DNA of 64,000 nt from Planctomycetota bacterium (GTDB taxonomy: Bacteria; Planctomycetota; B15-G4; SIAN01), in contig JANNXA010000016.1 in the NCBI GenBank assembly GCA_031409275.1, positions 96,001 to 160,000 of the forward strand, in the 5' to 3' direction. This document shows, in pieces, positions 24,512-44,964 of this stretch. The position numbers were made by a program, and so were the translations under genes. The notes under the pieces were generated by a model, which was given only the letters and a program-made list of their open reading frames with translations, had not been told where the DNA came from and searched no databases. Numbering within the stretch: position 1 is the first letter of the stretch; every line of letters begins with the position of its first letter.

Positions 24512-24535
24512 CCAGGGGCGCGGCGGAGCCCAGCG

Positions 24536-25045: not shown

Positions 25046-25055
25046 GCGCCACGCC

Positions 25056-27416: not shown

Positions 27417-28237
27417 CGAGCAGTCGCCGCGGGGTCCTGCGCACGCTCGGCACGGCGCTGCTCGGAGCCCTGTTGCCGTCGCGGCGCGCGAACGCGCAAA
27501 CGGCAGCGTCGAAGCGAACGCTGACCGCGGATGGCCACACGCCGCGCTGGGGAATGGCAATCGACCTCGACCTCTGCACTGCCTGCGGCGGTTGCGTAGT
27601 CGCCTGCGCCAGCGAGAACAACCTGCCGTTGCCCGACGACTCGACCGACGCGGCCGGCACCGGCGTCTCGTGGATGGAACTCGTCGCGCCGCGCTCGGGC
27701 GAGCAAGGAGTCGTCGCCGAGCTCGCGCCGATGCCCTGCATGCACTGCGACAACCCGCCCTGCACGAAAGTCTGCCCGGTCGGAGCGACCTACCAGAACG
27801 AGGAGGGGCTCGTCGTCCAGATCTGGGATCGCTGCATCGGCTGTCGCTATTGCACCGCCGCGTGTCCCTACTCGCGCCGCTACTACAACTGGTCGAAGCC
27901 GGAGTTCCCTGACGACCTGCGCAACCTGCTCAACCCCGACGTCGCGACGCGCCCCGAAGGGGTCGTCGAGAAGTGCACCTTCTGCGTCCATCGGCTGCGC
28001 AAGACGAAGGAGAACGTCCGCCGCGAAGGGCGCCTGCTGACCGACGACGACGTCGTCCGGCTGCCGGCGTGCGCACAGTCGTGCCCGGCCAGCGCGATCG
28101 TCTTCGGCGACCTCGCCGACCCGACCAGTCGCGTCGCGCACGCGGCCGCCAGCCCGCGCGCCTCGCGCCTGCTCGAGCACCTCGGCACGCAGCCCAAGGT
28201 CTACTACTTGTCGAAGGACCGCAGGAGGAGTTCATGA
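27413..28237 (+). CDS. 4Fe-4S dicluster subunit (NrfC/QrcC-like)
   Basis: WGMAIDLDLCTACGGCVVAC, CMHCDNPPCTKVCP, CIGCRYCTAACPY, VVEKCTFC, PACAQSCP; ATGA overlap with the upstream gene. Confidence 0.95.
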   Translation: MTSSRRGVLRTLGTALLGALLPSRRANAQTAASKRTLTADGHTPRWGMAIDLDLCTACGGCVVACASENNLPLPDDSTDAAGTGVSWMELVAPRSGEQGVVAELAPMPCMHCDNPPCTKVCPVGATYQNEEGLVVQIWDRCIGCRYCTAACPYSRRYYNWSKPEFPDDLRNLLNPDVATRPEGVVEKCTFCVHRLRKTKENVRREGRLLTDDDVVRLPACAQSCPASAIVFGDLADPTSRVAHAAASPRASRLLEHLGTQPKVYYLSKDRRRSS

Positions 28238-29799: not shown

Positions 29800-29928
29800 C
29801 CCACGCCACGCGGGCGGCACTCGTCCTCCCTTGGCGGCCACTCCACCCACGCCATGGTCTTGCAAGTCCGCGTTCTCTCTCTACGGTGCGGAGCCTGGAA
29901 CAATCCCCCCCCCACCTTGGAGTTCGAC

Positions 29929-30924
29929 ATGCGGAGTTGGATATCGATCTCGATCCTCGCGGCGCTCATGCCCGCTCCGGCTTTCGCCGGCGACTGCGAC
30001 GGCGCGGACGGCTGGCACAACGCGGCTCCGACCGAAGCCGCCATCGGCTCGACGGTCGACGTCTGCCTGCACGGTCCGGCCAATGAGATGGGACTGCTCC
30101 TGGTCTCGGGCACTCAGGGATCGCTGCCGAGCAAGTACGGCACGATCTGCGTCGGCTTCCCGACGATCACCGATGTCCTGTTCACGCTCGACGTGAACGG
30201 CACCTTCTGCTTCCAGGCCGAGATCGACTGCGATCCGACGCTCGTCGGGATCACGGTCTACTCGCAATTCATCACCTGCCGGCCGAACATCGGCATCTCG
30301 AACCTCGTCGCGACGACGATCACCGACGCGCTCTGCGACGGCGATCTCTGCACCTTCACGCAGGGTGGTTGGGGAACTTCGTGCAGCGGCGGCAACCCCG
30401 GCTGCCGTCGCGATCAGTGGTTCGACACCGTCTATCCCAACGGGCTGACGCTCGGTGACAGCGACGGCATCGATGGCGATTCGGTCTACGCGCTCCACTT
30501 CGATAGCTCGAGCGCGGTCGAGGCGTTCCTTCCGGCCGGCAAGTCGGCGGGAGTGCTCACGGCGGACGCCCACAATCCGACCAAGAGCGCGGCGGGCGTC
30601 TTCGCTGGCCAGCTGCTTTCGGCCAAGCTCAACGTCGGTTTCGATGACGCCGGCGCGCTCGACGATTGCAAGGGTCGCACCGACCTCCTCGTCGGCGACC
30701 TCGTCTTCCAGTCCGGCGTCGATGGCGACCTGATCGGCTGGACGGTCCGCGAAGTTCTCGACCTCGCCGATCAGGCGATCAGCGGCGCGCTCGGAACCGA
30801 CCTCGACCTCGACGGCGACGGCCACGCCGAGCTGACGATCAGCGACCTCAGCGACGCGCTCGACGTGCTGAACAACAACTTCGACAACGGCACGTCGAAC
30901 CTCGGGCACCTCGGCATCGGCTGA
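29929..30924 (+). CDS. Secreted acidic, Cys-containing protein of unknown function
   Basis: Signal peptide ending PAFAG; TFTQGGWG...GGNPG motif; DxDxDG loops; SD GGAG. Confidence 0.75.
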   Translation: MRSWISISILAALMPAPAFAGDCDGADGWHNAAPTEAAIGSTVDVCLHGPANEMGLLLVSGTQGSLPSKYGTICVGFPTITDVLFTLDVNGTFCFQAEIDCDPTLVGITVYSQFITCRPNIGISNLVATTITDALCDGDLCTFTQGGWGTSCSGGNPGCRRDQWFDTVYPNGLTLGDSDGIDGDSVYALHFDSSSAVEAFLPAGKSAGVLTADAHNPTKSAAGVFAGQLLSAKLNVGFDDAGALDDCKGRTDLLVGDLVFQSGVDGDLIGWTVREVLDLADQAISGALGTDLDLDGDGHAELTISDLSDALDVLNNNFDNGTSNLGHLGIG

Positions 30925-30943
30925 GCTTCCACCACGGCATCTG

Positions 30944-30989
30944 GCGGGCCCGGCACGGCGAGGAGCCGCGCCGGGCCCGCGTCGTTTCT
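30944..30989 (+). terminator. Probable intrinsic terminator
   Basis: GCGGGCCCGGC...GCCGGGCCCGC stem followed by gtcgtttct, 20 nt after the stop codon. Confidence 0.55.
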
Positions 30990-31049
30990 GCCGCGGAGGG
31001 GCCGCCTGAGGAGGCGGCTGCCGAGAGGAATCCCCCAGGTTCCGGGAAG

Positions 31050-31078
31050 TAAAGCCGCGGCCGCGCGCCTGCCGATTA
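31050..31078 (+). promoter_or_regulatory. Sigma28 (FliA/WhiG)-like promoter
   Basis: TAAAG-N16-GCCGATTA upstream of the pilin-like cluster; spacer slightly longer than the E. coli consensus. Confidence 0.4.
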
Positions 31079-31120
31079 GTCGACTCGCTCCCGTTTCGAA
31101 CCGGGTCGAGGACGCGCTCC

Positions 31121-31819
31121 ATGACACCACTGATCGCAAGCCGTCGATCACTCTTGCCGCACCGCCGCCAGTGCGACGGCTTGGGCCTGATCGATTGCCT
31201 CGTGTCTCTCGTCGTGATCTCGCTGTCGAGCTTCGGGTTCCTCGCCGCCTCGATGTCGTCCACCGCGCTCGACGTCGAGACGCGCACGATCGCGGCCGCG
31301 AACCGGATCACGCGCGGGGTGCTGGAAGAGATGCAGTCGATCCCGATGGACGAGCTCATCCGGCGCTTCAACGCCGACCCGGCCGACGATCCCGACGGGC
31401 CCGGCACCGCGCGCGGCGACACGTTCGAGCTGCAAACGACGGAAACGAAACGCGACCCGCTAGTCGTCGTCGAGGACCTCTACGACCCGAATTGCACTTA
31501 CGACCCGAACGCGAGTTGCAACACGACGACGTCGGATCGCACCAAGGTGTCGATCGGATCGATCCCGCCGAAGATGGATTGCCGCGTCGATCTGCCGACG
31601 ACGATCAGCGGCGGCATCGAGAAGCTGCGCGAGGACACTGTCGCGCCAGAGCTCGGGCTGCCCGCCGACTTGAACGGCGACGGCCAGATCGACTCCGTCG
31701 ACCACTTCGCCGACTTCAAGATCCTCCCGGTGCGCATCCGCATCCAGTGGCCTGGCTCTGACGGCAGCCTCCGGAGCGTCGACCTCACCGCGGTGCTCGG
31801 CGGCAGGGGCAAGTCGTGA
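31121..31819 (+). CDS. Type IV minor pilin / pseudopilin-like protein (PilV-like)
   Basis: Basic leader then G-LGLIDCLVSLVVISL hydrophobic helix; DLNGDGQID loop. Confidence 0.7.
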   Translation: MTPLIASRRSLLPHRRQCDGLGLIDCLVSLVVISLSSFGFLAASMSSTALDVETRTIAAANRITRGVLEEMQSIPMDELIRRFNADPADDPDGPGTARGDTFELQTTETKRDPLVVVEDLYDPNCTYDPNASCNTTTSDRTKVSIGSIPPKMDCRVDLPTTISGGIEKLREDTVAPELGLPADLNGDGQIDSVDHFADFKILPVRIRIQWPGSDGSLRSVDLTAVLGGRGKS

Positions 31820-32475
31820 TGCGCCGCAAACCCCGCACGAGGTCGCGCGCCGAGGCGGGCGTCTCGATGATCGACGTGCTCATGGGCGCCGCCGTCATGG
31901 CGACCGTGCTGGGCGGCGTCACGACGTTCCTGAGCTCGGCGATCGCCGGCAGTCGCACGACGACCGAGCGGGCGATCCTGGCGCGGCGCGCTTGCGAAAC
32001 GGTGCGGCGCATCGCCGACGAGATCAGCATGGCGGACGCCTCCTCGCTCTCGACGGCGGCCGAGCCCCTCGGCGCGAACTTCCTCGACTTCCGTTTGCCG
32101 CAGGTGATCGCCGCGGCCGGCGTGACCTGGGCGAACACGACGCGCATCGAACTCCAGGCCGACCCGAGGGACGTTGCGGACGGCACCGACAACGACGGCG
32201 ACGGCGTGATCGACGAGGGGATCGTCGTGCTGCGCCGCAACGTCGGCCTCGTCAACGAGCAAGCCACGACCCTGGCGACCGGTGTCGCACCGCTTCTCGA
32301 GGGCGAGACGGACAACGACGCCGACGACAACAACAACGATCTCGAGGACGAAGCCGGCCTGAGCTTCGAGACGGACGAGGACGGCATGGTGACCCTCCGG
32401 CTCACCCTCTTCGCTGCGACCCGGACGGGCGTGCTGGTCTGCACGGCGGCCGCGGACGTCGTCCCCCGCAACTAG
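31816..32475 (+). CDS. Type IV minor pilin / pseudopilin-like protein (PilW-like)
   Basis: Basic leader then G-VSMIDVLMGAAVM; RRIADEI; DGTDNDGDGVIDEG. Confidence 0.7.
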   Translation: MMRRKPRTRSRAEAGVSMIDVLMGAAVMATVLGGVTTFLSSAIAGSRTTTERAILARRACETVRRIADEISMADASSLSTAAEPLGANFLDFRLPQVIAAAGVTWANTTRIELQADPRDVADGTDNDGDGVIDEGIVVLRRNVGLVNEQATTLATGVAPLLEGETDNDADDNNNDLEDEAGLSFETDEDGMVTLRLTLFAATRTGVLVCTAAADVVPRN

Positions 32476-32489
32476 GAGTGCGCCGAATC

Positions 32490-33932
32490 ATGAAGCCCAC
32501 CATCAATCGAGCGGTCGCAGCGCTCCGGAATCCACGGCGTGGACGACGCGAGGGCGGCAGCGTGCTGCTGGCCGCGATCGCGATCGCGTTCATCCTCGCC
32601 GGACTCGCCGCCTCGACGCTGCGCATCGTCTACTCGGTGCAGAACGAGACGCAGCAGGAGCGCGACGACCTCGTGAGGCGCTACCTCGCCGAGTCTGCGG
32701 CCGGCTTCGCCGAGCTCGACCTCGTGGCGGAAGGGAGCGGAAGCCTCGGCAGCGAGCAGGCACCGATCACGTTGAACGGAGGGGCGTACTGGACCGTCGC
32801 GACCAGGAACGCGGACACGACGGTGCGGGTCGACTGCTTCGGCGCGTACCACGGCGGCACGCGCGCGATCTCCGCGACGTTCCTCGATGCGCCTGATCTC
32901 TTCGACAACGCGGTGTTCGCCGGCAACTCGTCGGGCGATCCGAACTACTCGCTCAACTTCGGCGGCACCGGAGCTGACGCGGACGCGGTGTCGGGCGACA
33001 TCTACAGCGGCGGCGACATCGCTTTCAACGGCACCTCGACGATCACGGGAACGCCGCGCGCCAAAGGCGACATCACGGGAGCCGCGGGCAAGGAGGGGCA
33101 GACGCAGCCCCTGCCCGACCTCGCCGCGATGGACTACGCGAACACGGCCGACGTCGACGTCGTCGCCGACTTCACCCGCGCGACGCGCGCCTTCTACAGC
33201 GCCGGTGGATTCGCGTGGCAGCTGCCCGCGTCCGAGAAGGCGCACGTCTTTCGCAAGAACCCGAATGATCGAGCGGCCGAAATCGCTTCGACCACGAAGG
33301 ACGACTTCTTTCTCGAGGATCCCTACGAGCGCTGCCGTTCGGACTCGCGTTCCGACGGCTCCGACCCCTACGTGATCACGCTCAACGGCGACACGGGGAG
33401 GGCGGGTGGCGACGGCAACGGGCTGGTCTACTACATCGACGGCAACCTCTGGATCCACAACAAGAACACGATGTCGCTGCAGATCGAGGGACTCGGCTCG
33501 CTCGGCATCACCATCGTCGTGCGCGGCAACATCTACATCTCCGACAACATCTTCTACGAGGACAAGGACCGGGACGGCCTCGCCTTGATCGCGATGGCGG
33601 ATCCGAGCGTGAATGACAGCGGGAACATCTACTTCGGCGATCCGGTGTTCGGCACGCTCGAACACATGAGCGCCTACATGTACGCCGAAAACAACTTCTT
33701 CGACACCAACTTGAGCGCCTCCGGCTCCGCCCGAGTCTCCGTCGACGGAATGATGAGCGCCGGCAACCAGGTGGCGATCAACCGCGACTTCAGGGGACGC
33801 CACTCGCGCCTCACCGTGAACTACGACTCGCGCGTCCGCGATGGCCGCCTGAGGCTGCCGGGCCTGCCGTCCAGCTCGTCCGGCGGCGAGGTCACGTTCC
33901 TCGGCTGGCAGCACATGGCCGCGGGGCAGTGA
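32490..33932 (+). CDS. PilX-like protein with a large beta-rich C-terminal domain
   Basis: RREGGSVLLAAIAIAFILAGLA N-terminus; YLAESAA; YYIDGNLWI and IVVRGNIYI repeats; SD AGGAG. Confidence 0.75.
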   Translation: MKPTINRAVAALRNPRRGRREGGSVLLAAIAIAFILAGLAASTLRIVYSVQNETQQERDDLVRRYLAESAAGFAELDLVAEGSGSLGSEQAPITLNGGAYWTVATRNADTTVRVDCFGAYHGGTRAISATFLDAPDLFDNAVFAGNSSGDPNYSLNFGGTGADADAVSGDIYSGGDIAFNGTSTITGTPRAKGDITGAAGKEGQTQPLPDLAAMDYANTADVDVVADFTRATRAFYSAGGFAWQLPASEKAHVFRKNPNDRAAEIASTTKDDFFLEDPYERCRSDSRSDGSDPYVITLNGDTGRAGGDGNGLVYYIDGNLWIHNKNTMSLQIEGLGSLGITIVVRGNIYISDNIFYEDKDRDGLALIAMADPSVNDSGNIYFGDPVFGTLEHMSAYMYAENNFFDTNLSASGSARVSVDGMMSAGNQVAINRDFRGRHSRLTVNYDSRVRDGRLRLPGLPSSSSGGEVTFLGWQHMAAGQ

Positions 33933-33936
33933 CGCC

Positions 33937-35208
33937 ATGAGCCGAATGACCTCATTCGCAATCGCGTTGCTCCTTGCCGTGGCGGCACCGCCGCTGCTCG
34001 CGGACGACGACTGGGCCGCGATCGTGGCGGCCAGCAAGCGGGTCGCGGCGATCGTTCGCAACGACGCAGGACTCAATGAGAGCGCGCAGGTCGCGGCTCT
34101 CGTCGCGCTCGGCGATTCGACGATCCCCGCGCTCTTCGCGCTCCACCTCGGCATGCCGTTGCCGTCAGCCGCCGAGGGCGGCGACCCATCGGTGGCCGCG
34201 GACGAAGCCCCCACCGCGCTGGCGCTGGCGGCGCTGCGCGCGCTTCCGTCCGAGGCGGTCGACGACTTCCTGGTGACCGTCGCGGCTGGAGCGACCGACC
34301 CGCGCCGCGCGATCGACGTCGTGCGCGTCGCCGGCGAGCTCGCGCGCAAATCGTCGTTCGGCGTCCTGCTGCGGGTGACGGCGGCGATGGACGAGCTGCT
34401 GCAGGGGCATCCGGTCGTCAACGGCACCTTGCGCACCGCGCTGCAGTCGATCGTGGCGCACGCCTGCCCACCCCCCGCCGAGCTGCGAACCCTCGTCGCG
34501 TCGCTGCCACCCGCGTTCACCGAGACTGCGCTTGACGCCGTCGGAACGAAGCTGGCGGATGAACGCGCGACACTCTGCTGCGACCTCTTCGGCAAGCGCC
34601 AGGAACTCGATCGCACGGTGCTCGTCGAGCTCGACCGCCGGCCGCCTACCAACACCGCCGACGCGGATCGCGTCGCGCGGCTCCTGTGCTCGAATACCAA
34701 TGTCGAAGCGGTCGAGACCCGTCGCCTCGTCGCTCACGCGCTGCGGCGCTACCCGGCGCTCGAAAGCGCGGAAGCGCTGATCGACCTGCTGGCCGATGTC
34801 GACCCGCGCGTGCGCGCGGTGGCCCTCCAGTCGCTCGGTGAAGTCGCTGGAGTGACGCTGCCAGCGGACGCGACGTCATGGCGTGACTGGCGCAACGTCG
34901 AGCGCCGCTGGCGCGCCGAAGAACTCCCCGAGATCAAGCGACGACTCGAGAGCGCCGACGTCCAGGAAGCGCTGCGTTGGGTGGCGACGCTGTCGTTGAA
35001 ACGCGTCCATGCGGCGGAGGTCGCTGCAGTGGTCGGGCCGTTCCTGGAACACGAGCGGGCAGAGCTCCGCCGCGCCGCGTGCGAAGCGCTCGGCCGGCTG
35101 GCGACGCCTGCATGCACGGAGTGGCTGCGTCGGGCGCTGGTCGATCGCGACGCAGCGGTACGGGCCATCGCACAGAGAAGCCTGGCAAAGATGGGAGAGC
35201 GGTCATGA
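33937..35208 (+). CDS. Secreted HEAT-repeat protein
   Basis: Signal peptide; LIDLLADVDPRVRAVALQSLG, LRRAACEALGRL, DRDAAVRAIAQRSL. Confidence 0.8.
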   Translation: MSRMTSFAIALLLAVAAPPLLADDDWAAIVAASKRVAAIVRNDAGLNESAQVAALVALGDSTIPALFALHLGMPLPSAAEGGDPSVAADEAPTALALAALRALPSEAVDDFLVTVAAGATDPRRAIDVVRVAGELARKSSFGVLLRVTAAMDELLQGHPVVNGTLRTALQSIVAHACPPPAELRTLVASLPPAFTETALDAVGTKLADERATLCCDLFGKRQELDRTVLVELDRRPPTNTADADRVARLLCSNTNVEAVETRRLVAHALRRYPALESAEALIDLLADVDPRVRAVALQSLGEVAGVTLPADATSWRDWRNVERRWRAEELPEIKRRLESADVQEALRWVATLSLKRVHAAEVAAVVGPFLEHERAELRRAACEALGRLATPACTEWLRRALVDRDAAVRAIAQRSLAKMGERS

Positions 35209-35831
35209 GTGCTTCGACGGAACGACGTCACGGATTCGTCACCAAGCTGCTGTCGGGAGAGCGTCTCGAGTGGAGCCTCATCGGCCGACTCGCGGTCGTG
35301 CTTGCCGCCGCGTTCGTGACCTTCGCGACACTCTCGCTGACGATGCCGGCCGCGATCGGCTACTTCACCGGCACGCCGCAGCACGGCATCGCCGAAGTGC
35401 TGAAGCGCGGCGACCTGCTGCTCAACGCCGTGGTGCTGCCGTTGGCGGCGACGTTCTTGTGCCTGTTCGGTTTCTGCATCCGTGAGGCGCTTCGCGTCGC
35501 CGGGCCGGCGTACCGCTTGAACGACGTCGCGTGCCGGCTTCAGGAGCTCTCGGTGCCGCGCGGGGTTCGCGTCCGCAAGGACGACCATCTGCAGTTCGCG
35601 GTGAAGCAGCTGAGCGTCGGACTCGAGCGGATCCACGAGGAGCTGGCGGCGCTGCAGACGATTGCGCGACGCGCTGACGTCAACGATCCCGCTCGCGCAC
35701 AGGCGGCGTTGACGCAACTCAAGATGCGCCTCGAGAGCTTCACGCTCGTGACGGCGGCTCCGGAGTGCGCAGTGATCACGGACACGACGGTCGCCGTCGC
35801 CGATGCGGTGCGAGAGCCGGTGGTTCAGTAG
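35205..35831 (+). CDS. Two-TM membrane protein with a HAMP-like segment
   Basis: Two hydrophobic helices followed by RVAGPAYRL...VRVRKDDHLQ; ATGA overlap. Confidence 0.7.
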   Translation: MSASTERRHGFVTKLLSGERLEWSLIGRLAVVLAAAFVTFATLSLTMPAAIGYFTGTPQHGIAEVLKRGDLLLNAVVLPLAATFLCLFGFCIREALRVAGPAYRLNDVACRLQELSVPRGVRVRKDDHLQFAVKQLSVGLERIHEELAALQTIARRADVNDPARAQAALTQLKMRLESFTLVTAAPECAVITDTTVAVADAVREPVVQ

Positions 35832-35865
35832 CGACACCACGCGGCGGGGTCGACCGCCGGCGCGA

Positions 35866-36807
35866 TCAGCGCGGTTCCTGCTGTGAGCGCACGGCGCAGC
35901 GCACGCCGTCCGACGTGACGGTCACCGATCCGTGTTCGGCCGTGACGTAGACCTCCGCGCCGACGGCCCCGAAGACCCGCTTCGCCAGATCGCCCGGCGA
36001 GCGCGGCTTCTTGTTCGTGTAGTTCGCCAGGCACGAGACGACGACCGTGCGCGGGTGGACCGCATCGACGAAGCGCGCCTCGTCGAAGAATCCGTGGTGC
36101 GGCGCGACCAGAACCGTCGAACGCAACGTCTCGGCTGGGACTGTCGCGAGCAGGCTCTCGCTGCCTTCGTGCTCGAGGTCACCGGGCAGGAGGAAGACGT
36201 TGTCGCCGTGCTGGATTCGCAGCACGACGGAGTTGTCGTTCAACCGGTCGTCGTCACTCGACCGCACGCCCCCGATCGGAGGCGCCAGAACCGTGACCTC
36301 GAGCGCAGGATCCCACGGCAACGTGTCGCCCGCGTGCACGACGCGGTAGCCCTTCGCACGCTTCTGCGCGCGCTTGCGCAGGTCGAGGTACTCGGTGTCG
36401 ACCAGCGCCCCCTCGGCCCCCGCGTCGACGAACGTCGCCACCTCGAAGTGCTTCAACAGATACGCCGCGCCCTCGAAGTGATCGTGATGGGGATGGCTGA
36501 TCACGATGCCATCGATCGCATCGACGCCACGCGCGCGCAGGAACGGCGCGAGCGTGTCCTTGCCGGTGTCGCTGTCGCCCAACTTGTCGCCGGTGTCGAC
36601 GAAGTAGAGGGCGCCGGACGGGGTCTCGACGGCGATGGCGAGTCCGTGCCGGCTCAACCCGAAGACCGTGATCTGCAACGTGCCGGGCATGCGAGCGGCA
36701 GGCGGCGCGGTCTCGCCCGGCGATCGCGTGCACGCCAACGAAGCCGCGATCGCGATGCAACCGAGGATCGCGGCCTGCCAGCCTCGTCGCCGAATGGGGC
36801 GCCTCAT
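35866..36807 (-). CDS. Lipoprotein metallo-beta-lactamase-fold hydrolase (ComEC C-terminal domain-like)
   Basis: Lipobox SLAC; FVDTG, ISHPHHDHFEG, NDNSVVLRI, PGDLE, APHHG; no ComEC membrane domain; ATGA overlap with tolC-like gene. Confidence 0.85.
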   Translation of the reverse strand: MRRPIRRRGWQAAILGCIAIAASLACTRSPGETAPPAARMPGTLQITVFGLSRHGLAIAVETPSGALYFVDTGDKLGDSDTGKDTLAPFLRARGVDAIDGIVISHPHHDHFEGAAYLLKHFEVATFVDAGAEGALVDTEYLDLRKRAQKRAKGYRVVHAGDTLPWDPALEVTVLAPPIGGVRSSDDDRLNDNSVVLRIQHGDNVFLLPGDLEHEGSESLLATVPAETLRSTVLVAPHHGFFDEARFVDAVHPRTVVVSCLANYTNKKPRSPGDLAKRVFGAVGAEVYVTAEHGSVTVTSDGVRCAVRSQQEPR

Positions 36808-38114
36808 GGATCGAACACCGTGCCCGTGGCGAGGTCGAGTTCGACGCGCGCCTTCACGCCGTCGAACCACGCCTGCGCCTGATCGCGACGGGCGTCGAGG
36901 ATTCGCGACTCGATCGTCCACCACTCGATCGCGTCCACTTCACCCGCCTCCAGCGCCGCCTTCATCAGCTGCTCGGCCTCGTCGAGCGCCTGCGGCAGCG
37001 GATCGGACGAACCGTGCCTTCGCTGATCTTGCGCCCGCCATCGCAGGACCGCGAGGTGAATCTCCTGGCGGACCCGCGCCAGCTGCGCCGCGTAGGCGGC
37101 CTCTGCCTGCTTCACCCGCGCTTCCTCGACGGCGATCGCCTTGTCGCCCGAATCGAACAACGGGATCTCGAATCCGGCCTGGAGCCCGAAGTCGTGGCCG
37201 AGGTGGTCCCCCTCGGCCGAAGGCTGCAGGAAGAGTGGCCACCATCCATGCGCCAATCGCGCGATCCGCAGCGTCTGCTGCTGCGCGTCGTACTCCTGCG
37301 CGCGCACCTGCAGATCGGCGCGGCGCGAGAGAGCGGCCTGCTCGAGCGCCGCCTCATCGGGCTCGACGAACTCGCGCTCCTGCGTCGCTTTGCGCACCCG
37401 CAAGGGCGCGTCGAACGGCGCCCCCACCAGCGCCGCGAGTTCCGTACGCGCCACCTCGAGCTCCGCTCTCGCAACCAAGAGTTCCTCGTCGAACTGAGCG
37501 CTGCGCAGCCTGGCGAACGCCGCATCGATGCCCTTGGCGGCTCGCGCGACCACCCTCTCCTTCACGAGCGTCGCCATGCGAGCGTGCAGAGCGCGCGCCG
37601 CTTCGGTGAGCGCGAGCTGCTCTTCGAGCATCACGACTCGCGCGTGAGCCAGCCGGGTCGCCGCGGCGACCTGCGACTCGCGATCGGCGATGCGGGCGAC
37701 GGCACGCGCGTCCAACGCCTGCGCACGCCCGACACGCGCATCACGTTCGCCCGGCACGCCAGGGAAGAAACGCAATCCGAGTGCGAGTGCCACCGGACTG
37801 CCGACGCTCGACGCGAGGTGGGAGAGGCTCGGCCGGAACTCGGGATTGCGCCACGCCCCCTCGGCGACGACCTCATTCGCGGCGATCTCGTGCTCCACGC
37901 GCAGCGCCACGAGGTCGGGATGGTGGACCAGCGCGAGCGCCATCGCCTGAACCGGATCGAGCCCCTCCGCCGGAACGTCGATCCTCGCCGCGCGCAGCTC
38001 CGCCAGCAGCGCCTCCGGATCCAGCGGCGGCGGCCGATCCGTGGAGCAGCTCGCTGCCGCCGCGAACGATGCGACGACCAGCCAGCGAACGGCGCGATTC
38101 GGGCGGCGGCTCAA
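36804..38114 (-). CDS. TolC-family outer membrane channel lipoprotein
   Basis: TTG start overlapping the upstream stop; lipobox AASC; ALVHHPDL, NPEF, ALSRRADL, FEIPLFD, ELDLATG. Confidence 0.85.
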   Translation of the reverse strand: MSRRPNRAVRWLVVASFAAAASCSTDRPPPLDPEALLAELRAARIDVPAEGLDPVQAMALALVHHPDLVALRVEHEIAANEVVAEGAWRNPEFRPSLSHLASSVGSPVALALGLRFFPGVPGERDARVGRAQALDARAVARIADRESQVAAATRLAHARVVMLEEQLALTEAARALHARMATLVKERVVARAAKGIDAAFARLRSAQFDEELLVARAELEVARTELAALVGAPFDAPLRVRKATQEREFVEPDEAALEQAALSRRADLQVRAQEYDAQQQTLRIARLAHGWWPLFLQPSAEGDHLGHDFGLQAGFEIPLFDSGDKAIAVEEARVKQAEAAYAAQLARVRQEIHLAVLRWRAQDQRRHGSSDPLPQALDEAEQLMKAALEAGEVDAIEWWTIESRILDARRDQAQAWFDGVKARVELDLATGTVFDP

Positions 38115-39292
38115 TGGAACCTCACGTCGTAGATGGCGCCGACGATCGAATCGACCTGGCCCTGAAGCTCGAGGGTGATCCGCCGTCCCCACTGCGGCGA
38201 GTCGAGCGTGGGACGGAGTCGCAGCGGGACCTCCTCGATCAGCGGCCCCATCGACGTGACGCGCCCCTCGACCGCTCGACCGGGAAGATCGCGCGGCCGC
38301 AGCGTCGCCAGCGTTCCCACTTTCACCGCCTGGATCTGCCGGTCGACGATGTAGGCCGAGACCGCTCCCGCCGACGGCAACACGATGCACGCGATCTCCG
38401 CGCCGGCGACGCACCACTCTCCGGGTCGCACGAGGATCCGACTGATGGTGCCGCTCGCGGGGGCAGCGATGCGACACGACTGACGCTCGAGCTCGAGCTG
38501 CGCCACTCGCGCCTCCTGGCTCGCCCGGGCCAACTCGAGCGGGAGCAGGCTCGCCTCGAGGTCGAGCTCCTGCGAGGACTCCGGAGTCAGCGCGTCCCAC
38601 GCGACCACCGCGGCCTGAACTCTCTCGACGCTGGGGCCGCGCGACACGATCCGTTCGGCGAGCAGCGCGCGTCTCCGTTCGAGTTCCTCGACTCGATCGA
38701 CGGTCGTCAACTGCCGGTCGAGCAGCGCCTTCTGCCGCTCGATCTGCGGTGCGATGGCGGCGAGCTCGGCCTGATCGGTCGCCTGATCGGTCGCTTGCGC
38801 CGCGGCGGCAGCGCGCAGCCGGAGCCCTTCGCTCTCGAAGGTGGTGCGGCGCGCCAGCGCTTGCGCGCGACTCTCGATCGCGGTGATCCGAAGCGTGGCT
38901 CGCTCCGCTTCGATGTTCGACCGCGCACGGTCGAGTTCGCTGTGTGCGAGGCGCAAGCGCGCGTCGATGTCCCCTGGGTCGAGCGTCGCGATCGGATCGC
39001 CCGCCTGCACGACCTGGCCGACGGCGACGTCGATCGTCAGGAGGCGGCTGGCCACCGAAGGCGCGATGCGCAGCTCCGCTGCGCTCTCGCACGCGATCGC
39101 GTGGCTCTCCCCTGAACCACCGAAGTAGAGCCACGCCGCAGCGATCGCTGCGCCGCACCATGCCGTCAGCGGCCAGATGCGAAACGCCATGCGGGCGAGG
39201 CGGCGCGAGGTCGCGATCCTCGGCGGCGGCCGCGGACCGAGGCGTGGCGCATGGGCGCTCCGTGCGGTCTCGACTTCCGGTGCGATTCTCAT
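38111..39292 (-). CDS. HlyD-family periplasmic adaptor (membrane fusion protein)
   Basis: Single TM helix; lipoyl half-motifs VAVGQVVQAGDPIATLD and IAAPASGTISRILVRPGE; long coiled coil. Confidence 0.88.
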   Translation of the reverse strand: MRIAPEVETARSAHAPRLGPRPPPRIATSRRLARMAFRIWPLTAWCGAAIAAAWLYFGGSGESHAIACESAAELRIAPSVASRLLTIDVAVGQVVQAGDPIATLDPGDIDARLRLAHSELDRARSNIEAERATLRITAIESRAQALARRTTFESEGLRLRAAAAAQATDQATDQAELAAIAPQIERQKALLDRQLTTVDRVEELERRRALLAERIVSRGPSVERVQAAVVAWDALTPESSQELDLEASLLPLELARASQEARVAQLELERQSCRIAAPASGTISRILVRPGEWCVAGAEIACIVLPSAGAVSAYIVDRQIQAVKVGTLATLRPRDLPGRAVEGRVTSMGPLIEEVPLRLRPTLDSPQWGRRITLELQGQVDSIVGAIYDVRFH

Positions 39293-39294
39293 GG

Positions 39295-39987
39295 TCAGAC
39301 CTCGAGCCCGGGATCTTGCATCAGCAACGAGACGTCGTTGATCTCGTCCACGGAGCGGATCGCATCGATGAGGGAATGCTGGAACGACGGGTCGCGCAGC
39401 TTGATCTGGTAGGCGTGCTCGAGGCGCTTGCCTTGCGCGATCTCGCGCAGATTCACCAGCACGAACCGGCTGCAGTACTCGAGCAACACTCGCTTCAGCG
39501 GGAGGTCCGCTTCGGGACTGGCACCGCTGTTGAGCCGCAGCAGTCCATCGAACTGCTTGCGGCTCGCGAAGGGGCTGAACGTCAGGTGGATCATGAAGAG
39601 GCTGAACATCGCCGTCCCGATGCCGGCGATGAGGAAGGACTGCACCCCCACCGAGATCCCGACGGCCAGCGACGCGAAGATGAAGCTCATGTCGCGCACG
39701 TCGCGCAGCGTCGAGCGGAAGCGGATGACCGCGAGCGTGCCGAGCAGCCCGAGGCCGCGCGCCACGCTGTTGCCGATCGCCAGCATGAGCAGCGTCGCGA
39801 CGACACCGGTGATCGCCAGCGCGATCACGAATCCGCGCGAATAGGAGAGCCCGCGGAAGGTCCACGAGTAGACCGCCGCCAGCACCTGACACAACACGAA
39901 GGAGACCAGCATCGAGAGCAGGATCATCTGCCAGGAGAGTCCCGGCTCGTAGCGAAGGTACTGATCGAACAGCGCATCCATGGTCAT
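39295..39987 (-). CDS. DUF4956 family membrane protein
   Basis: YSRGFVIAL, IGNSVARGLGLLGTLAVIRFRSTLRDVRD; TM helices plus a C-terminal soluble domain; ATGA overlap. Confidence 0.9.
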   Translation of the reverse strand: MTMDALFDQYLRYEPGLSWQMILLSMLVSFVLCQVLAAVYSWTFRGLSYSRGFVIALAITGVVATLLMLAIGNSVARGLGLLGTLAVIRFRSTLRDVRDMSFIFASLAVGISVGVQSFLIAGIGTAMFSLFMIHLTFSPFASRKQFDGLLRLNSGASPEADLPLKRVLLEYCSRFVLVNLREIAQGKRLEHAYQIKLRDPSFQHSLIDAIRSVDEINDVSLLMQDPGLEV

Positions 39988-40766
39988 CCCCTGACACTGG
40001 CGCGTCGATGGAACTCGACGCCGCCGGAGGCGCCATCGAGAAGACGCGTCATCGAGACGATGTACTTCGAGAATCCGCAGCGCACGAGATCGAGCTCGGC
40101 GACCAGGTCGGACATCCAGCGCGGGAAGTCGCGACTGAACTTGAGTTCGATGAGGAACGCGCGCGGCACGTCGAACATCTCGCCGGCGCCATCGATGTAT
40201 CTCCACCCCAACGGGTCCTCGATCGCGCCGTCGCCTTCGAACGACTGGTAGCACATCGCGCGATCGAACGTGATGCGGGCGTACTCCCCGAACACGCTCT
40301 CGTAGGCCTCGCGGGAGTACCGCGAGCGCATCACGGGAACGGCACCCGACCTCGTGGTTCGGTCGAGGAACGACGCGAGCGTCGGGTCGGCGCGGCCGGC
40401 CGCGAGCGCGAGCGGCCGACCGCAGAGCAGCCCATCGAGCTCTTCTCGCGACATCCGCGCCCGATCCTTCACGATCACTTGCCGGATCTTGCGCTTCACC
40501 TCACAGAAGATCTGCCCGTGCTCGATCGAGTCGTACCAGCGAACCCGCAACTTGTAGCGATCCGGAGCATCCCGCAGCCCGGCGTGATAGAGCTCGAGCG
40601 TCGGCGTGTCGAAGTAGATGCTGTGGATCGTGTAGGCATGGTCGACCGACTGCTGCGCATGCTCGTCGAGCCGGGTGTAGGGTCGAATGAAGCGTCGAAG
40701 CTCCTCGATCCGGTCTTCCGAGAGGAAGTACTTGTACTCGTAGCGTTCGAAATGGAGCGCCTCCAT
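39984..40766 (-). CDS. VTC-domain polyphosphate polymerase-like protein (CYTH/TTM fold)
   Basis: RYEYKY, SIYFDTP, RYKLRVRWY, FCEVKRK, YSREAY, RITFDR, IELKF, FSKY. Confidence 0.92.
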   Translation of the reverse strand: MEALHFERYEYKYFLSEDRIEELRRFIRPYTRLDEHAQQSVDHAYTIHSIYFDTPTLELYHAGLRDAPDRYKLRVRWYDSIEHGQIFCEVKRKIRQVIVKDRARMSREELDGLLCGRPLALAAGRADPTLASFLDRTTRSGAVPVMRSRYSREAYESVFGEYARITFDRAMCYQSFEGDGAIEDPLGWRYIDGAGEMFDVPRAFLIELKFSRDFPRWMSDLVAELDLVRCGFSKYIVSMTRLLDGASGGVEFHRRASVRG

Positions 40767-40771
40767 CGCCG

Positions 40772-40888
40772 TCAGTAGCCAGCGCGGCGGGCATGCCCCA
40801 CCGCCAACGCCACGACTGCCAACGTCCCGAACAGCAGCGTCGATCGGGCGAGCCACACGCCGATGCTGCGGATGAACCTGCGCGTCAC
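40772..40888 (-). CDS. 38-aa single-TM small protein (not on the ORF track)
   Basis: AGGAG SD 7 nt before GTG; MTRRFIRSIGVWLARSTLLFGTLAVVALAVGHARRAGY*; fills the gap in the operon and ends 5 nt before the VTC start. Confidence 0.6.
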   Translation of the reverse strand: MTRRFIRSIGVWLARSTLLFGTLAVVALAVGHARRAGY

Positions 40889-40922
40889 GTCGAGTCTCCT
40901 GATGGTGTCCACGCCGCAGCGC

Positions 40923-42305
40923 TCACTGGTCGTAGGTGATCAGGACGGGCGCCGACATCTCCGCCGGCTTCGCGATCCCCGCCACTTGCACGACGATGTT
41001 CAGGTCACCGTTGAGGTCGGCGGGATCCAGCGAGAAGTCGATCGCGGCGCGACCGTTCGAGTCGAGGTCGAAGGGCAGCAGGAGGAAGTAGTTCGACGTG
41101 TACCACGCCTGGAAGCGGAACTTGTCGGAGAGCGGCACCGCGTCGAACGTCGCGCCCGCGCTGGATGCGCCGAACGTGGCGAAGATCCAGACCGTGCCAT
41201 CCGGCACGCCATGGTCGATCCAGAGCGTGTCGTCGAGGTCGAGCGGGGTGAGTCCCTGGCCCGACAAGTCGAGGCAGAGCGGAAGGTCGCGAGTGGCGAT
41301 CACCTGGAGGCAGGTGAGGTCGCTGCCGTTGCCGTCGAGGCCGAGGAACGAGCCGGTCGGCGATGCGGCGCCGCCGAGAGCGACGCCGTTCAACGTGGCG
41401 ATCGCGCCGCCCCCCGCGGTGGTCAGGATGCGAGGGCCGTTGTCCGAGCCGGCGTAGAGCAGGTTCGGCCACGCCGTGACGCCGTCGGCACCCACGAACG
41501 TCCCACCCGCGGGATCGACGTCGAGCGCCTGCAGGTCGCCGATGGTCGTGACAGGAACGCCGAGCGCATCGAGCAGCCCCGCGGCGACCACCTGCGCGTC
41601 CACGTCGGACTCGGCGAGGACGATCGCGACCGTGTCGCTGCCGAGGCTTGCGATGGTGCCGTCGGCGTTCCAGACGATGTCGTCCGCATCGAACGCGAGC
41701 ACGGCGCCGTCGCCCACGCTGACGAGGTCGCCGTGGATCAGCTCGTCGTCGCGGAACGAGACGTAGAGGTTGCCGTCCGCATCGAACGCCGCCGCATCGA
41801 CGTCGATCGACAGGGTCGTGCCGATCCCGGCCTGCAACGTCGGCTGCGACAACACGATGTCGATCACCGGCGCACCGACCGCCGGGGCGCGATGGAAGCG
41901 CCACAACGAGCCGTCGGTCACGATGGCCGCGTACGCCTCGCCGAAGTCGGACTTCGAGCTGAGCACGTAGTCGAAGATCGAGGGGCTGCCGTAGGGCGAG
42001 GCGACATAGCTCGGCGGCAGGGCGATCGCATCGATCTCGTCGAGCGCGGTCTCGAAGAAGTCGAGGTCGCCATCCTCGTCGCCGAGCAGCGCGTTCAGCG
42101 TCGCCAGGCCGACCGTCTTCTCGGCCGCGAGCGTTCCTGGCCCGGGAACCACCTCGCAGATCGTCTCGTCCGTGAGGAGGTCGAGTGGGGTGAGGCCGCC
42201 TCGGGTCGAGCAGTCGGCTTCGGGAACGAAGACGAGCGAGTGCTGGGCGCCGGCCGTTGCGGCGACGCCGATCTGCAAAACGAGGACGGCGATCGAGCGA
42301 TTCAT
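40923..42305 (-). CDS. Secreted acidic protein of unknown function
   Basis: GGAG SD; signal peptide MNRSIAVLVLQIGVAATAGAQ; Asp-rich, beta-rich body. The frame stays open upstream to 42581. Confidence 0.75.
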   Translation of the reverse strand: MNRSIAVLVLQIGVAATAGAQHSLVFVPEADCSTRGGLTPLDLLTDETICEVVPGPGTLAAEKTVGLATLNALLGDEDGDLDFFETALDEIDAIALPPSYVASPYGSPSIFDYVLSSKSDFGEAYAAIVTDGSLWRFHRAPAVGAPVIDIVLSQPTLQAGIGTTLSIDVDAAAFDADGNLYVSFRDDELIHGDLVSVGDGAVLAFDADDIVWNADGTIASLGSDTVAIVLAESDVDAQVVAAGLLDALGVPVTTIGDLQALDVDPAGGTFVGADGVTAWPNLLYAGSDNGPRILTTAGGGAIATLNGVALGGAASPTGSFLGLDGNGSDLTCLQVIATRDLPLCLDLSGQGLTPLDLDDTLWIDHGVPDGTVWIFATFGASSAGATFDAVPLSDKFRFQAWYTSNYFLLLPFDLDSNGRAAIDFSLDPADLNGDLNIVVQVAGIAKPAEMSAPVLITYDQ

Positions 42306-42527
42306 GGGAGCTCCGGGTGCGGGGATGGAGGGCGTTCGTTGGCCGGCGCAACTCCACGCAACGAGGCCGGCACTCAACGGCTGCACGAACAGCAATCGCG
42401 ACGCCGGCGTGCCGTCGCGCCGCCTTGATTGCGTGTCGGGATCGCCCGCGGGCACCCGCGCCTTGGCGAGCGCTTCATTGAAATCCAATTCAGGATTGCC
42501 GTCCGCTCGACGTGCGATCGAGCACTG

Positions 42528-42776
42528 CGCGCTTCCGACGAGGTTCTGAATCGAACGGCCCAGCCGCAGCAGGGGTTTCATGAACCACGCGGGCTAGCCG
42601 CTTGACTCATGATCCCCGTCGCGAGGCGACGGGATGTCGGTCCAGGACGAGGAGGGAATGCGAGTCTCCGACGATGCGGGCTGGTGAGCCCGCTGAGGAA
42701 GGAACGCGCGTTTCCGACGAAGTACTGGATTGACAGACCAAGCCGCAGCAGGGGTTTCATGAGTCGAGCGGGCTAG
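42528..42776. repeat. Imperfect 70-bp direct repeat, two copies (42528-42597 and 42707-42776)
   Basis: Shared core AGCCGCAGCAGGGGTTTCATGA-N6-GCGGGCTAG; offset 179 bp. Confidence 0.9.
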
Positions 42777-42823
42777 AGTCCGTCGCCGCTGGTCGGCGCC
42801 GCGGTCGTCGGAGCGCACCTCTC

Positions 42824-43501
42824 ATGCGTCTGTTGGTCGTCGAGGACTCGGAGCGGCTTGGGGAAACGCTGCGTGTCGGTCTGCGGAAGCTCGGCCACGC
42901 GGTCGATGTCGTCGGCGATGGGACGCGCGGCCTCTCCTATGCAAAGCTCAACCCGTACGACGTGATGATCCTCGATCTCATGCTGCCGGGCCTCGACGGG
43001 ATGTCGGTGATGCGCTCGATCCGCCAGCTCGGCAACTCGATCCCGATCTTGATCCTGACGGCCCGCGATGCCGTCGCGGATCGGGTCGCCGGGCTTCGGC
43101 AGGGCGCCGACGATTACCTGGTGAAGCCGTTCGCGTTCGACGAGCTGGTGGTCCGCATCGAGGCACTCGATCGGCGCGCGCGCGGAACGGCGAGCCCATC
43201 GATCGAGGTCGGCGACCTGCACATCGACACCGGCGCGCGACGCGTCTCGCGGTCTGGGAAATGGATCGAGCTCAATCGCCGCGAGTACGCCCTGCTGCTC
43301 TACCTCGCCCAGCGACGCGGAAAAGTGGTCACCCGGCTGGAAATCGAGGATCACCTCTACGACGAGCACCACTTCCCGAACAGCAATGTCGTGGCCTCCG
43401 CCATCTCGGAGTTGCGGGCGCGACTCGCCGTCGATGGTCGACCCGACATGATCCAGACTCGGCGCGGACTCGGCTATGTGCTCGAGGCCCCCACGTGTTG
43501 A
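42824..43501 (+). CDS. OmpR/PhoB-family response regulator
   Basis: MRLLVVED, ILDLMLPGLDG, LILTARD, GADDYLVKPF, winged-helix QTRRGLGY. Confidence 0.95.
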   Translation: MRLLVVEDSERLGETLRVGLRKLGHAVDVVGDGTRGLSYAKLNPYDVMILDLMLPGLDGMSVMRSIRQLGNSIPILILTARDAVADRVAGLRQGADDYLVKPFAFDELVVRIEALDRRARGTASPSIEVGDLHIDTGARRVSRSGKWIELNRREYALLLYLAQRRGKVVTRLEIEDHLYDEHHFPNSNVVASAISELRARLAVDGRPDMIQTRRGLGYVLEAPTC

Positions 43502-44964
43502 CGTCGATCCGCGCACGGGTGACGCTCGCCGCCTGCGCCATCGTGATCGGCGCGGTGGCCTCCGTCGGGATCACGATCGACGTGCTGATTCGTCGGCAGA
43601 TGGTCCGCCTGTACGACGAGTCGGTCGCGATGCGCGTGCGCACGCTGGCGACACTCGTGCATTCCTCCGACGCGATGCTGTTCTTCGACTTCGCCGGCGA
43701 ACTGATGCCCGAGTTCGAGCGCGCCGCTCACGCCGACTACTTTGAGGTGTGGGACAGCGACGGCGACGTCATCGAGCGCTCCCTTTCGTTGGACGACGCG
43801 CATCTTCCGCGAACGTTCGGATCGGTTGCCACGCCCGCGGCATTCGACCTCCGTCTCCCCGACGGGCGTCATGGACGCGCGATCGGCATCGAATTCGATG
43901 CCTCACCTGCCGAGGCGGATGAAAGCGTCGAGGGTCTCGACTCCTCACTGCACCCGCACCCATCGCAGAGCCACCGCGCGGTCATCGTGGTCGCCTCCGG
44001 GAGAGCTGGGCTCGACGACGCGTTCGTCGCGCTGCGTCGAGTCGTCGTGGCAAGCAGCGTCGTCGCGTCGCTCGTCGCGCTGATCGTGACGGCCTGGATC
44101 GTGCGGCGATCCATGCGCCCGCTGATCGGGCTCGCGCGACACCTGGAGCAGATGGATGCCGCCCGCCTCGATGAGCCGCTGGCGCGGATGGGGTTGCCCT
44201 CCGAACTGATCCCGATCTGCGAACGTCTCGACGACCTCTTCGCGCGAGTTCAAGCCGCGTTCGATCGGGAGCGGCGAATGACCGCCAACCTGGCACACGA
44301 GCTGCGGACGCCGATCGCCGAGCTGCGGGCGGCGACCGACGTGGCGGAGCGCTGGCCGGACGACGCGGCACTTCGCCTGAACGCGATCGAGACGGCATCG
44401 GACGTCGCAGCGCGCATGGGCGTCGCCGTCGACGCGTTGCTGAAGCTCGCCCGACTCGAGGCCGGAGAGGACGAAATCGAAGGCGACCGGGTGAATCTCG
44501 CCGCTCTGTTCGAGGACGCCTGGCGACCGTTGGTCCGCGGTTGCGCCGCGCGCGAGCTTCAGCTTGTCGACGAGATTCCGCGTGACCTCGAAGCGTCTAC
44601 GGACCGCGGTCTTCTGGCGCTGGTGGTCAGCAACATTGTGCGCAATGCCGTCGTGCACGCCGATGCGCCCGGTCCGCTCACCGTCTCCGCAGAGGCGACC
44701 CCAACGCGGATCCGCTGGATCGTTCGCAATCGCGCGTCTCGGCTGTCGCGGGCCGATCTGCCCTACCTCGATCAGCCGTTCTGGCAAAAACAACCCGCCG
44801 CCCCCCGCGGCACGCACGTCGGGCTCGGACTGGCGCTCTCCGACGCGATCCTCCGCTTCCTCGATTCGCACATGGAGTTCACCCTGGTCGCTGGTGAGCT
44901 GACGTTGACGCTCGACCTACCAAGAGCGGCCCCCAACGCCGGCAAACAACCGGGCATCGCCTGA
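43495..44964 (+). CDS. Sensor histidine kinase (2 TM, periplasmic sensor, HAMP)
   Basis: ANLAHELRTPIA H-box; SNIVRNAV; GLGLAL; overlaps the regulator stop codon. Confidence 0.93.
   Translation: MLTSIRARVTLAACAIVIGAVASVGITIDVLIRRQMVRLYDESVAMRVRTLATLVHSSDAMLFFDFAGELMPEFERAAHADYFEVWDSDGDVIERSLSLDDAHLPRTFGSVATPAAFDLRLPDGRHGRAIGIEFDASPAEADESVEGLDSSLHPHPSQSHRAVIVVASGRAGLDDAFVALRRVVVASSVVASLVALIVTAWIVRRSMRPLIGLARHLEQMDAARLDEPLARMGLPSELIPICERLDDLFARVQAAFDRERRMTANLAHELRTPIAELRAATDVAERWPDDAALRLNAIETASDVAARMGVAVDALLKLARLEAGEDEIEGDRVNLAALFEDAWRPLVRGCAARELQLVDEIPRDLEASTDRGLLALVVSNIVRNAVVHADAPGPLTVSAEATPTRIRWIVRNRASRLSRADLPYLDQPFWQKQPAAPRGTHVGLGLALSDAILRFLDSHMEFTLVAGELTLTLDLPRAAPNAGKQPGIA

Follow-up and report, generated by a model that had tools for sequence, protein, structure and literature searches.

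The eukaryotic vacuolar transporter chaperone (VTC) complex (yeast Vtc4/Vtc3/Vtc1; 3g3q, 8i6v, 7ytj) is one for which a coupling between polyphosphate (polyP) synthesis and membrane passage has been proposed (PMC9911596). In bacteria, what is known in print is an uncharacterised trio of VTC, DUF4956 and CotH genes: the combination of CotH, a polyP polymerase and DUF4956 was noted beside Gram-positive pel operons (10.1101/768473), VTC occurs with CotH in the C. perfringens locus NELoc-2 (PMC2879425), and these loci were described without an adaptor or TolC. The available portions of PMC13454231 and PMC12526157 hold nothing further on function, and the latter treats VTC as a eukaryotic type. Here we analyze a window of 64,000 nucleotides from a Planctomycetota bacterium (GCA_031409275.1, contig JANNXA010000016.1, positions 96,001 to 160,000), in which an operon at positions 35866 to 42305 of the window combines VTC and DUF4956 genes with a HlyD-type periplasmic adaptor and a TolC-family duct. 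A search of the literature (mostly open-access main texts, no supplements) found no paper on VTC or DUF4956 together with an adaptor or TolC, and this form of the locus is apparently new.

The operon shares with the eukaryotic VTC complex a homologous catalytic tunnel and its catalytic residues. Unlike that complex it has no SPX domain, its catalytic domain is a separate soluble protein, its membrane partner is MgtC-like with no DUF202 likeness detected, and an adaptor and TolC are added. The same VTC and DUF4956 families are found in the trio loci, whereas this operon is without CotH or pel genes; adaptor-less, trio-like versions are also present in this genome. With members of the MgtC/SapB family (PF02308) the DUF4956 protein has a homologous membrane domain and ACT tail, but it scores under the Pfam cut-off, carries an invariant R-F-R motif and is in fixed linkage with VTC. 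Tripartite exporters, which comprise resistance-nodulation-division (RND) pumps, the MacAB and type I secretion (T1SS) ATP-binding cassette (ABC) systems and the EmrAB major facilitator superfamily (MFS) system, likewise have a membrane-anchored adaptor and a TolC-family duct; the cassette, in contrast, is without an RND, ABC or MFS-sized inner-membrane pump, and its TolC is optional at the locus. In the synthase-dependent secretion of alginate by Alg8/Alg44, it is the polymerase that drives export, aided by an adaptor-like co-factor and without a pump, and the periplasm contains a hydrolase, the lyase AlgL; that system uses a glycosyltransferase and a porin/tetratricopeptide-repeat (TPR) exit where the cassette has a phosphate tunnel enzyme and TolC, and the likeness is one of description only. 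The cassette belongs neither with the VTC complex, nor the synthase-dependent exporters, nor the RND, ABC and MFS pumps; it would resemble the first two in its working if the steps proposed below hold.

The seven open reading frames (ORFs) follow one another on the minus strand from 42305 to 35866 (Table 1; coordinates as in the ORF reading). The acidic-protein gene lies 34 nt from the 38-residue ORF, which lies 5 nt from the VTC gene; the VTC and DUF4956 genes overlap by ATGA, or are 2 nt apart with the 39981 start; 2 nt separate the DUF4956 and adaptor genes, the adaptor and TolC genes overlap by TTGA, and the TolC and metallo-beta-lactamase (MBL) genes by ATGA. These measurements bear out the row of tightly joined genes that a first-pass annotation of the window had described. 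Neither a sigma-70 promoter nor a terminator-like site was found in the region 35600-43000. Pfam assigned the VTC protein (E 3.9e-41), DUF4956 (3e-11), the adaptor (HlyD_3, 2.2e-15), TolC (OEP, 7.5e-25) and the MBL protein (Lactamase_B, 3e-9), and matched neither the 460- nor the 38-residue protein. By hydropathy and Pfam family calls DUF4956 is the sole multi-pass membrane protein among the seven, and none of the seven is an MFS-sized membrane protein. RND, MacB permease and ABC ATPase profiles had no match within 6 kb of the adaptor gene (the MFS was checked by hydropathy and family calls only), so that the absence of an ABC or RND pump, also claimed in that annotation, is confirmed.

The cassette is real, conserved and pump-less. 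A scan of GTDB anchored on DUF4956 confirmed at least 551 relatives, and in the best 80 that were kept, a sample that leans to close homologues and in which many loci end at contig edges, VTC and the adaptor were each present in 77/80. An OEP gene was found in 62/80, in 60 linked to the cassette and in 2 as part of a separate RND operon. A pump adjoined the cassette in only one of the 80 loci (L064), and this was a MacB-type ABC system with two adaptors of its own; an ABC-2 pair lies 4.7 kb further along in L042, a complete RND operon lies on the opposite strand in L020 and L022, and unnamed multi-pass genes occur near L036 and L037. The synteny without a pump that had been predicted for homologous loci is therefore conserved. 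For this count Pfam was applied to all 42 unassigned ORFs with at least five predicted helices or a P-loop and to 72 of the 93 co-directional neighbours, the remaining 21 having at most one predicted helix, and all-against-all clustering of the 80 loci yielded no recurrent pump family among families in at least four loci. The 25 metagenome loci, for the most part short, were free of RND and ABC matches.

The linkage spans Planctomycetota, Myxococcota, Verrucomicrobiota, Lentisphaerota, Fibrobacterota and KSB1, at an adaptor identity of ~20-30%, and survives changes of gene order. When 61 relatives were searched with the adaptor it was present in G003, G014 and G020. In G003, a genome of the same genus, the acidic protein, VTC, DUF4956, adaptor, TolC and MBL genes stand in the same order and are followed by a phosphate-selective porin, and in G014 and G020 the order is CotH-VTC-DUF4956-adaptor with no TolC adjoining. 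A survey of the phylum covered 201 genomes, 53 of them with DUF4956, and gave 66 loci from 69 match rows after exclusion of our own locus and of two pieces of a single broken gene; 20/66 have a co-directional adaptor (all with VTC, 6 with OEP) and 46/66 have none. At the G003 locus the DUF4956 gene (L006:9948-10547) is without ~29 residues of its ACT domain and the acidic-protein gene (L006:11375-12823) is frameshifted, either by decay or by assembly error. A full cassette with TolC was also seen in a metagenome-assembled genome labelled Bifidobacterium (L085); it groups with Fibrobacterota sequences and is probably a mis-binned contig.

Table 1. Genes of the operon, in order of transcription, with positions in the window.
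Predicted product	Position	Strand	Remarks
Secreted acidic protein	40923..42305	-	460 aa, net charge -50; planctomycete family without assigned function, accessory
Single-pass membrane peptide	40772..40888	-	38 aa, hydrophobic; AGGAG upstream; subclade-specific
VTC-domain triphosphate-tunnel enzyme, predicted polyP polymerase, cytoplasmic	39984..40766	-	260 aa; PF09359
DUF4956, MgtC-family membrane protein, candidate inner-membrane component	39295..39981 (alternative start 39987)	-	228 aa; PF16316
Periplasmic adaptor, HlyD/EmrA type	38111..39292	-	393 aa; HlyD_3, HlyD_D23, Biotin_lipoyl_2
TolC-family outer-membrane duct, predicted lipoprotein	36804..38114	-	436 aa, TTG start; PF02321
ComEC-type MBL-fold hydrolase, predicted lipoprotein, subclade accessory	35866..36807	-	313 aa; HxHxDH intact

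A DUF4956 tree was built from 144 rows by a quick search with a midpoint root; three duplicates and a broken gene had been dropped, as had any row shorter than 160 aa or with X. All 98 adaptor-linked rows fall in one clade of 102 (SH-aLRT 98), and the adaptor label needs 4 changes on the tree vs a shuffled mean of 39. The adaptor gene stands directly behind DUF4956 in 94/97 loci. In three of the four adaptor-less members of the clade an adaptor of the same subfamily is encoded elsewhere in the genome (E 2e-56 to 3e-77, the next best match being 1e-21 or weaker), and each of these displaced adaptors is followed by an OEP gene and, by hydropathy, has no multi-pass membrane protein encoded beside it, although two of these genomes are close kin; the genome of the fourth member, G046, gave no subfamily adaptor match. 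The dedicated clade and the displaced adaptor-OEP pairs are the strongest sign that DUF4956 is the partner of the adaptor, and DUF4956, with an adaptor clade of its own, is likely the inner-membrane part.

AlphaFold2 (AF2) models of DUF4956 have five long helices, predicted to lie in the membrane, and a C-terminal ACT domain whose fold resembles the C-terminal domains of MgtC proteins (7qa5, Z 8.3, root-mean-square deviation [rmsd] 4.5, 89 aligned; 2lqj, Z 8.2, rmsd 3.5, 87 aligned). HHalign matched DUF4956 to 20 planctomycete MgtC sequences at 96.9% (E 1.3e-10, 116 columns; 97.2% into the ACT part) and to 7 planctomycete DUF202 sequences, a shallow stand-in for the VTC channel domain, at 3%. 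DUF4956, by its predicted membrane domain and its ACT tail, is homologous to MgtC, even though PF02308 leaves the protein of this operon unmatched and gives a paralogue 24 bits against a cut-off of 31.4. Descent from Vtc1, which we considered, was rejected, the HHalign assignment being to MgtC. The idea in the first-pass annotation that a soluble VTC protein and DUF4956 may rebuild a VTC-like synthase/translocase has to be given up as far as descent is concerned, since DUF4956 is MgtC-like and showed no detected resemblance to the membrane domain of VTC. The membrane domain alone had no Foldseek match at E<=0.001, and with VIA-align its best matches were archaeal virus coat bundles (Z 9.1, rmsd 6.6, 103 aligned), no VTC chain being in the top 50; the A1 profile had no PDB relative and Atlas gave no usable match. 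Longer, fused forms were not seen among 7989 candidates, which is weak evidence. R87 and R89, of the R-F-R motif, are the sole residues invariant in 140/140 DUF4956 sequences, and would face the cytoplasm at a Gly-rich helix end if the ACT domain is inside. The adaptor clade additionally fixes G44-x-S-Y-S-R49, R149 and R179, and the conserved residues could be putative contacts to phosphate or to the enzyme.

The VTC domain (PF09359, 141.6 bits vs a cut-off of 23) covers residues 7-242 of the 260-residue protein, the closest PDB relative of which is yeast Vtc4 (3g3q, E 1e-7). Ten residues (R8, K12, R74, R76, K91, Y150, R152, E207, K209 and K234) are invariant in 74/74 aligned sequences. In the 3g3q alignment R8, K12, R74, R76, K91, Y150, R152 and K234 correspond to Vtc4 R196, K200, R264, R266, K281, Y359, R361 and K458, and E207 corresponds to E426, as matched by the E-x-K motif. 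Vtc4 R264, R266 and E426 are residues that were mutated to inactivate VTC (PMC9911596), and K458 is called catalytic in Vtc4 and dispensable in a triphosphatase (PMC4641920). Four glutamates, E2, E4, E90 and E171 in AtTTM3, set the hydrolases apart from Vtc4 (PMC4641920). By motif spacing E2 is replaced by R8 and E171 by K209 (basic, as in Vtc4), E4 corresponds to E10, and E90 is unmapped. The active site, as far as this alignment goes, leans to the polymerase type, though it is not identical to that of Vtc4. For the annotation's proposal of a polyP polymerase, then, the Vtc4-like site is intact, with its four catalytic equivalents invariant in 74/74, while the acidic patch is only partly replaced.

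The adaptor is anchored in the membrane by its N-terminus, has a long hairpin and is a member of a DUF4956-linked subfamily; its match to TIGR01730 (E 1e-20) is under the cut-off. Cys23 of TolC is kept in 84% of 58 linked homologues. In three loci of the subclade of this operon (L015, L207 and L212) the adaptor is without more than 100 hairpin residues, TolC is missing and an MBL gene comes next, which may reflect one event. As a separate observation, 26/80 adaptors carry a C-terminal propeller of ~300 aa (L020-L088; e.g., L083:10675-12714 and L020:10694-12985), one of which scores as Phytase-like (E 9e-8), and several such Myxococcota loci are without TolC.

The usual partner of the cassette is a secreted CotH kinase, found in 45/66 phylum loci and 27/80 GTDB loci; 11 of the 20 adaptor-bearing phylum loci are without CotH in the DNA that was fetched. 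In planctomycete loci a large, lamin-tail-fused CotH accounts for 8/9 in the 20 adaptor-bearing loci vs 5/36 in the adaptor-less ones, a comparison among kin that are not independent, and a lamin-tail domain occurs in 24/80 GTDB loci. Other extracytoplasmic partners elsewhere are PPDK-like proteins, a Cthe_2159 protein, propellers and porins; most of the partners handle phosphate or belong to the cell surface. In the Polyangiaceae loci L050, L066, L082 and L084 a protein of 660-690 aa with a PPDK_N ATP-binding domain is encoded beside CotH, ~2-5 kb upstream of DUF4956; judged from its domain assignment, it is a second sort of kinase-like partner there.

In this operon the flanking positions are taken by other proteins. 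The MBL protein matches ComEC models at E 8e-23, which is far under the cut-off and, of the 758 positions of the model, is confined to the C-terminal MBL part, and ComEC domains in the PDB at E 1e-26 (9ic4); we rejected a ComEC competence protein, the membrane competence domain being absent and only the MBL part matched. Its HxHxDH motif is kept in 7/7 homologues among those listed. An MBL gene stands beside the cassette in G003, in 2/80 GTDB loci and in 4/25 metagenome loci, in the close subclade only. The acidic protein had no Pfam or NCBIfam match and, with a 50-sequence profile, no PDB match at E<0.07; its family comprises 142 clusters with no domain found, its matches are unnamed planctomycete clusters only, and propeller-type families are leads below 0.9. 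Relatives are encoded immediately ahead of VTC in G003 and also in 3/66 phylum loci, with or without an adaptor, in the position usually taken by CotH. With a net charge of -50 such a protein could bind polyP only via cations. Its C-terminus weakly resembles a common planctomycete C-terminal domain (HHalign 44%). That domain, of ~125 aa (L007:6382-8799), occurs in 67 ORFs of G000, with 69/79 matches at the C-terminus, and may be a planctomycete surface-sorting domain. The 38-residue ORF has clear homologues directly upstream of VTC in L010, L203 and L207; none was seen in that position in seven other loci inspected (L006, L009, L011-L015). The first-pass annotation had suggested that the MBL protein could trim and the acidic protein bind the polymer; as core parts both were rejected, being lineage-specific accessories of one subclade in the GTDB and phylum loci.

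Our best reading, which we hold tentatively, is that polymerisation of polyP is coupled to its export, either into the periplasm or to the cell surface. It builds on the gene identities, the conserved pump-less linkage, the dedicated DUF4956-adaptor clade and the intact catalytic residues. Also in its favor are the adaptors of their own beside all four RND pumps of the genome, the presence of PPK1, the predominance of lamin-tail CotH fusions in adaptor-bearing planctomycete loci and the joint loss of hairpin residues and TolC in L015, L207 and L212. The VTC enzyme would likely use ATP to build the phosphate polymer on the inner side of the membrane, and DUF4956, the MgtC-like protein, would form an oligomer for the chain to pass through; the dedicated adaptor would then lead it over the periplasm, via TolC where present, with synthesis in place of a pump. 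The polymerase activity, the DUF4956 oligomer and its pore, all of the protein contacts and the direction of flow are what we infer. Secreted CotH kinases and further surface proteins would most likely use the exported polymer as a phosphate donor or as a scaffold, and in this operon the ComEC-type lipoprotein might trim or clear periplasmic polymer and the acidic secreted protein might take the usual place of CotH. That the cassette typifies a new class of exporter spanning the envelope, with an oligomer of an MgtC-family protein as its inner-membrane channel, a soluble Vtc4-type polymerase as its sole motor, and a dedicated adaptor and TolC that thread nascent polyP to the surface to supply secreted kinases, is possible, and we hold this broader claim with less conviction still. 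The polymerisation-driven export first put forward for this locus thus keeps its pump-less synteny, its DUF4956-adaptor clade and its active site, and loses the split VTC by descent, the obligatory TolC and the MBL and acidic proteins as core parts.

Several observations weigh against polymerisation-coupled export. This operon has no CotH gene, the nearest being at 17888-19546, 16 kb off, and E10 of the VTC protein retains one acidic-patch glutamate that is lost in Vtc4. The invariant arginines of DUF4956 stand at a helix end, and no basic residue mid-helix is invariant across the 140 sequences; TolC of this operon has a net charge of -12. Among the 97 adaptor loci with enough downstream DNA OEP is present in 71 and absent in 26, so that of the tripartite exporter originally proposed the adaptor with a linked TolC is conserved (60/80) and TolC as an obligatory third part is not; 24 of the 26 TolC-less loci keep the full adaptor hairpin, and L099 among them has a divergent OEP. 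A search of nine TolC-less genomes found no clearly dedicated OEP elsewhere, the best scoring 55-137 bits or there being nothing, whereas by the same measure a G000 OEP of the ordinary kind reached 107 bits and the majority of held-out cassette OEPs 185-394; since certain divergent OEPs from planctomycete cassettes came no higher than 24-37, this score test is not decisive. The TolC-less cassettes may make use of a general TolC, or their delivery may end in the periplasm. No enzymatic assay of any bacterial VTC protein turned up in the literature search. MgtC is described not as a channel but as a protein that acts by binding to other membrane proteins, PhoR among them (PMC6658541). In Streptococcus intermedius, deletion of the MgtC-like or the CotH gene cut aggregation by more than half in one medium and altered Pel levels, and for deletion of the polyP-polymerase gene the available text reports no drop in aggregation (PMC12345266), which is a poor fit with an obligatory VTC-DUF4956 pair.

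Some of these same observations favor other explanations. The last two, together with the MgtC homology and the ACT domain, would suit an arrangement in which DUF4956 is an MgtC-like regulator or scaffold, VTC makes a cytoplasmic signal, and adaptor and TolC use a pump in trans, perhaps secreting large CotH/lamin-tail proteins; the 55 ABC ATPases of the genome, whose partners were not attributed, could include such a pump. We consider this unlikely, as no pump family recurs among those in at least four loci, the adaptor follows DUF4956 directly in 94/97 loci across several phyla, and CotH is absent from this operon and from the fetched DNA of 11/20 adaptor-bearing phylum loci. The retained E10 would equally suit export by the same machine of a small phosphoryl donor (triphosphate [PPPi], a very short oligophosphate or a nucleotide) that feeds extracytoplasmic CotH kinases and PPDK-like enzymes. 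CotH genes are indeed frequent at the loci, PPDK_N-domain proteins were found in 4/70 neighbours scanned, all in Polyangiaceae, and a small anion could pass a five-helix MgtC-like protein more easily. However, a small solute needs no adaptor to reach the periplasm, and the chain-leading basic residues of Vtc4 are kept (R8, K100, R102 and K209, in a partly inferred mapping), which leads us to regard a small donor as improbable.

Inward scavenging of phosphate, to which we likewise give little weight, would have a porin or TolC admit polyP or organophosphates, periplasmic hydrolases such as the MBL protein and a phytase-like propeller cut them, DUF4956 take up or sense the product, and VTC serve as a triphosphatase. 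Porin_O_P genes do stand behind the cassette of G003 and that of G020, 26/80 loci have an adaptor with a fused propeller, one of these propellers scoring as Phytase-like, the operon encodes a ComEC-type hydrolase, and MgtC has been tied to phosphate uptake (PMC6658541); yet the porin profile matched 0/80 GTDB loci, the hydrolase acidic patch is partly replaced in the VTC enzyme, and the kinase neighbours suggest donation of phosphate rather than its release. Adaptor-TolC pairs in characterised systems are, moreover, known as exporters. It would be most surprising if adaptor and TolC were passengers inherited with VTC-DUF4956 and functionally unlinked to them: although 46/66 phylum loci have DUF4956 without an adaptor and the clade may stem from one ancestral rearrangement, the linkage is kept across six phyla at the low adaptor identity noted above, through changes of gene order, and the adaptor is retained after the operon splits.

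If the broader claim of a new exporter class holds, the cassette would be the first defined pathway by which bacteria make and secrete polyP independently of PPK, and an MgtC-family protein would acquire a role in transport. The cassette, a compact candidate of four genes, would represent a new inner-membrane class for adaptor/TolC systems, might serve the CotH kinases of bacteria that do not sporulate as a source of phosphoryl groups, and would provide a first function for bacterial VTC domains and DUF4956. It bears on how bacteria make and release extracellular polyP. A 2026 preprint describes PPK-independent external polyP with both the enzyme and the export route not known, in a species without a VTC4 homologue (10.64898/2026.08.04.742738), and the cassette need therefore not be the answer to the external polyP of that species.

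The genome has three VTC, three DUF4956 and four CotH genes, and its other two DUF4956 genes adjoin CotH and have no adaptor. The stand-alone CotH at 17888-19546 (minus strand) shares 35% identity with the CotH genes that accompany the other VTC or DUF4956 genes, and is a possible partner in trans. PPK1 is present, so VTC is not needed for storage polyP. All four RND pumps of the genome have an adjacent adaptor of their own. A divergent OmpR-type regulator and histidine kinase (42824-44964, plus strand) were considered as a conserved part and rejected, similar regulators being present in only five of the loci compared and none at the G003 locus. Between them and the operon, at 42527-42776, lies a 179-nt element with inverted ends and a 71-nt partial copy; there are 15 near-full copies including this one, 80-85% identical, on 12 contigs, resembling miniature inverted-repeat transposable elements (MITE) or repetitive extragenic palindromic (REP) elements. 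On the other side a convergent run (29854-35831, plus strand) comprises ORFs that look secreted and pilin-like and a HEAT-repeat protein, of which only the HEAT repeats match Pfam. It is preceded at 22988-29799 (plus strand) by what appears, from the translations, to be a cluster of a multiheme cytochrome, a molybdopterin oxidoreductase, an iron-sulfur protein and an NrfD-type membrane subunit.

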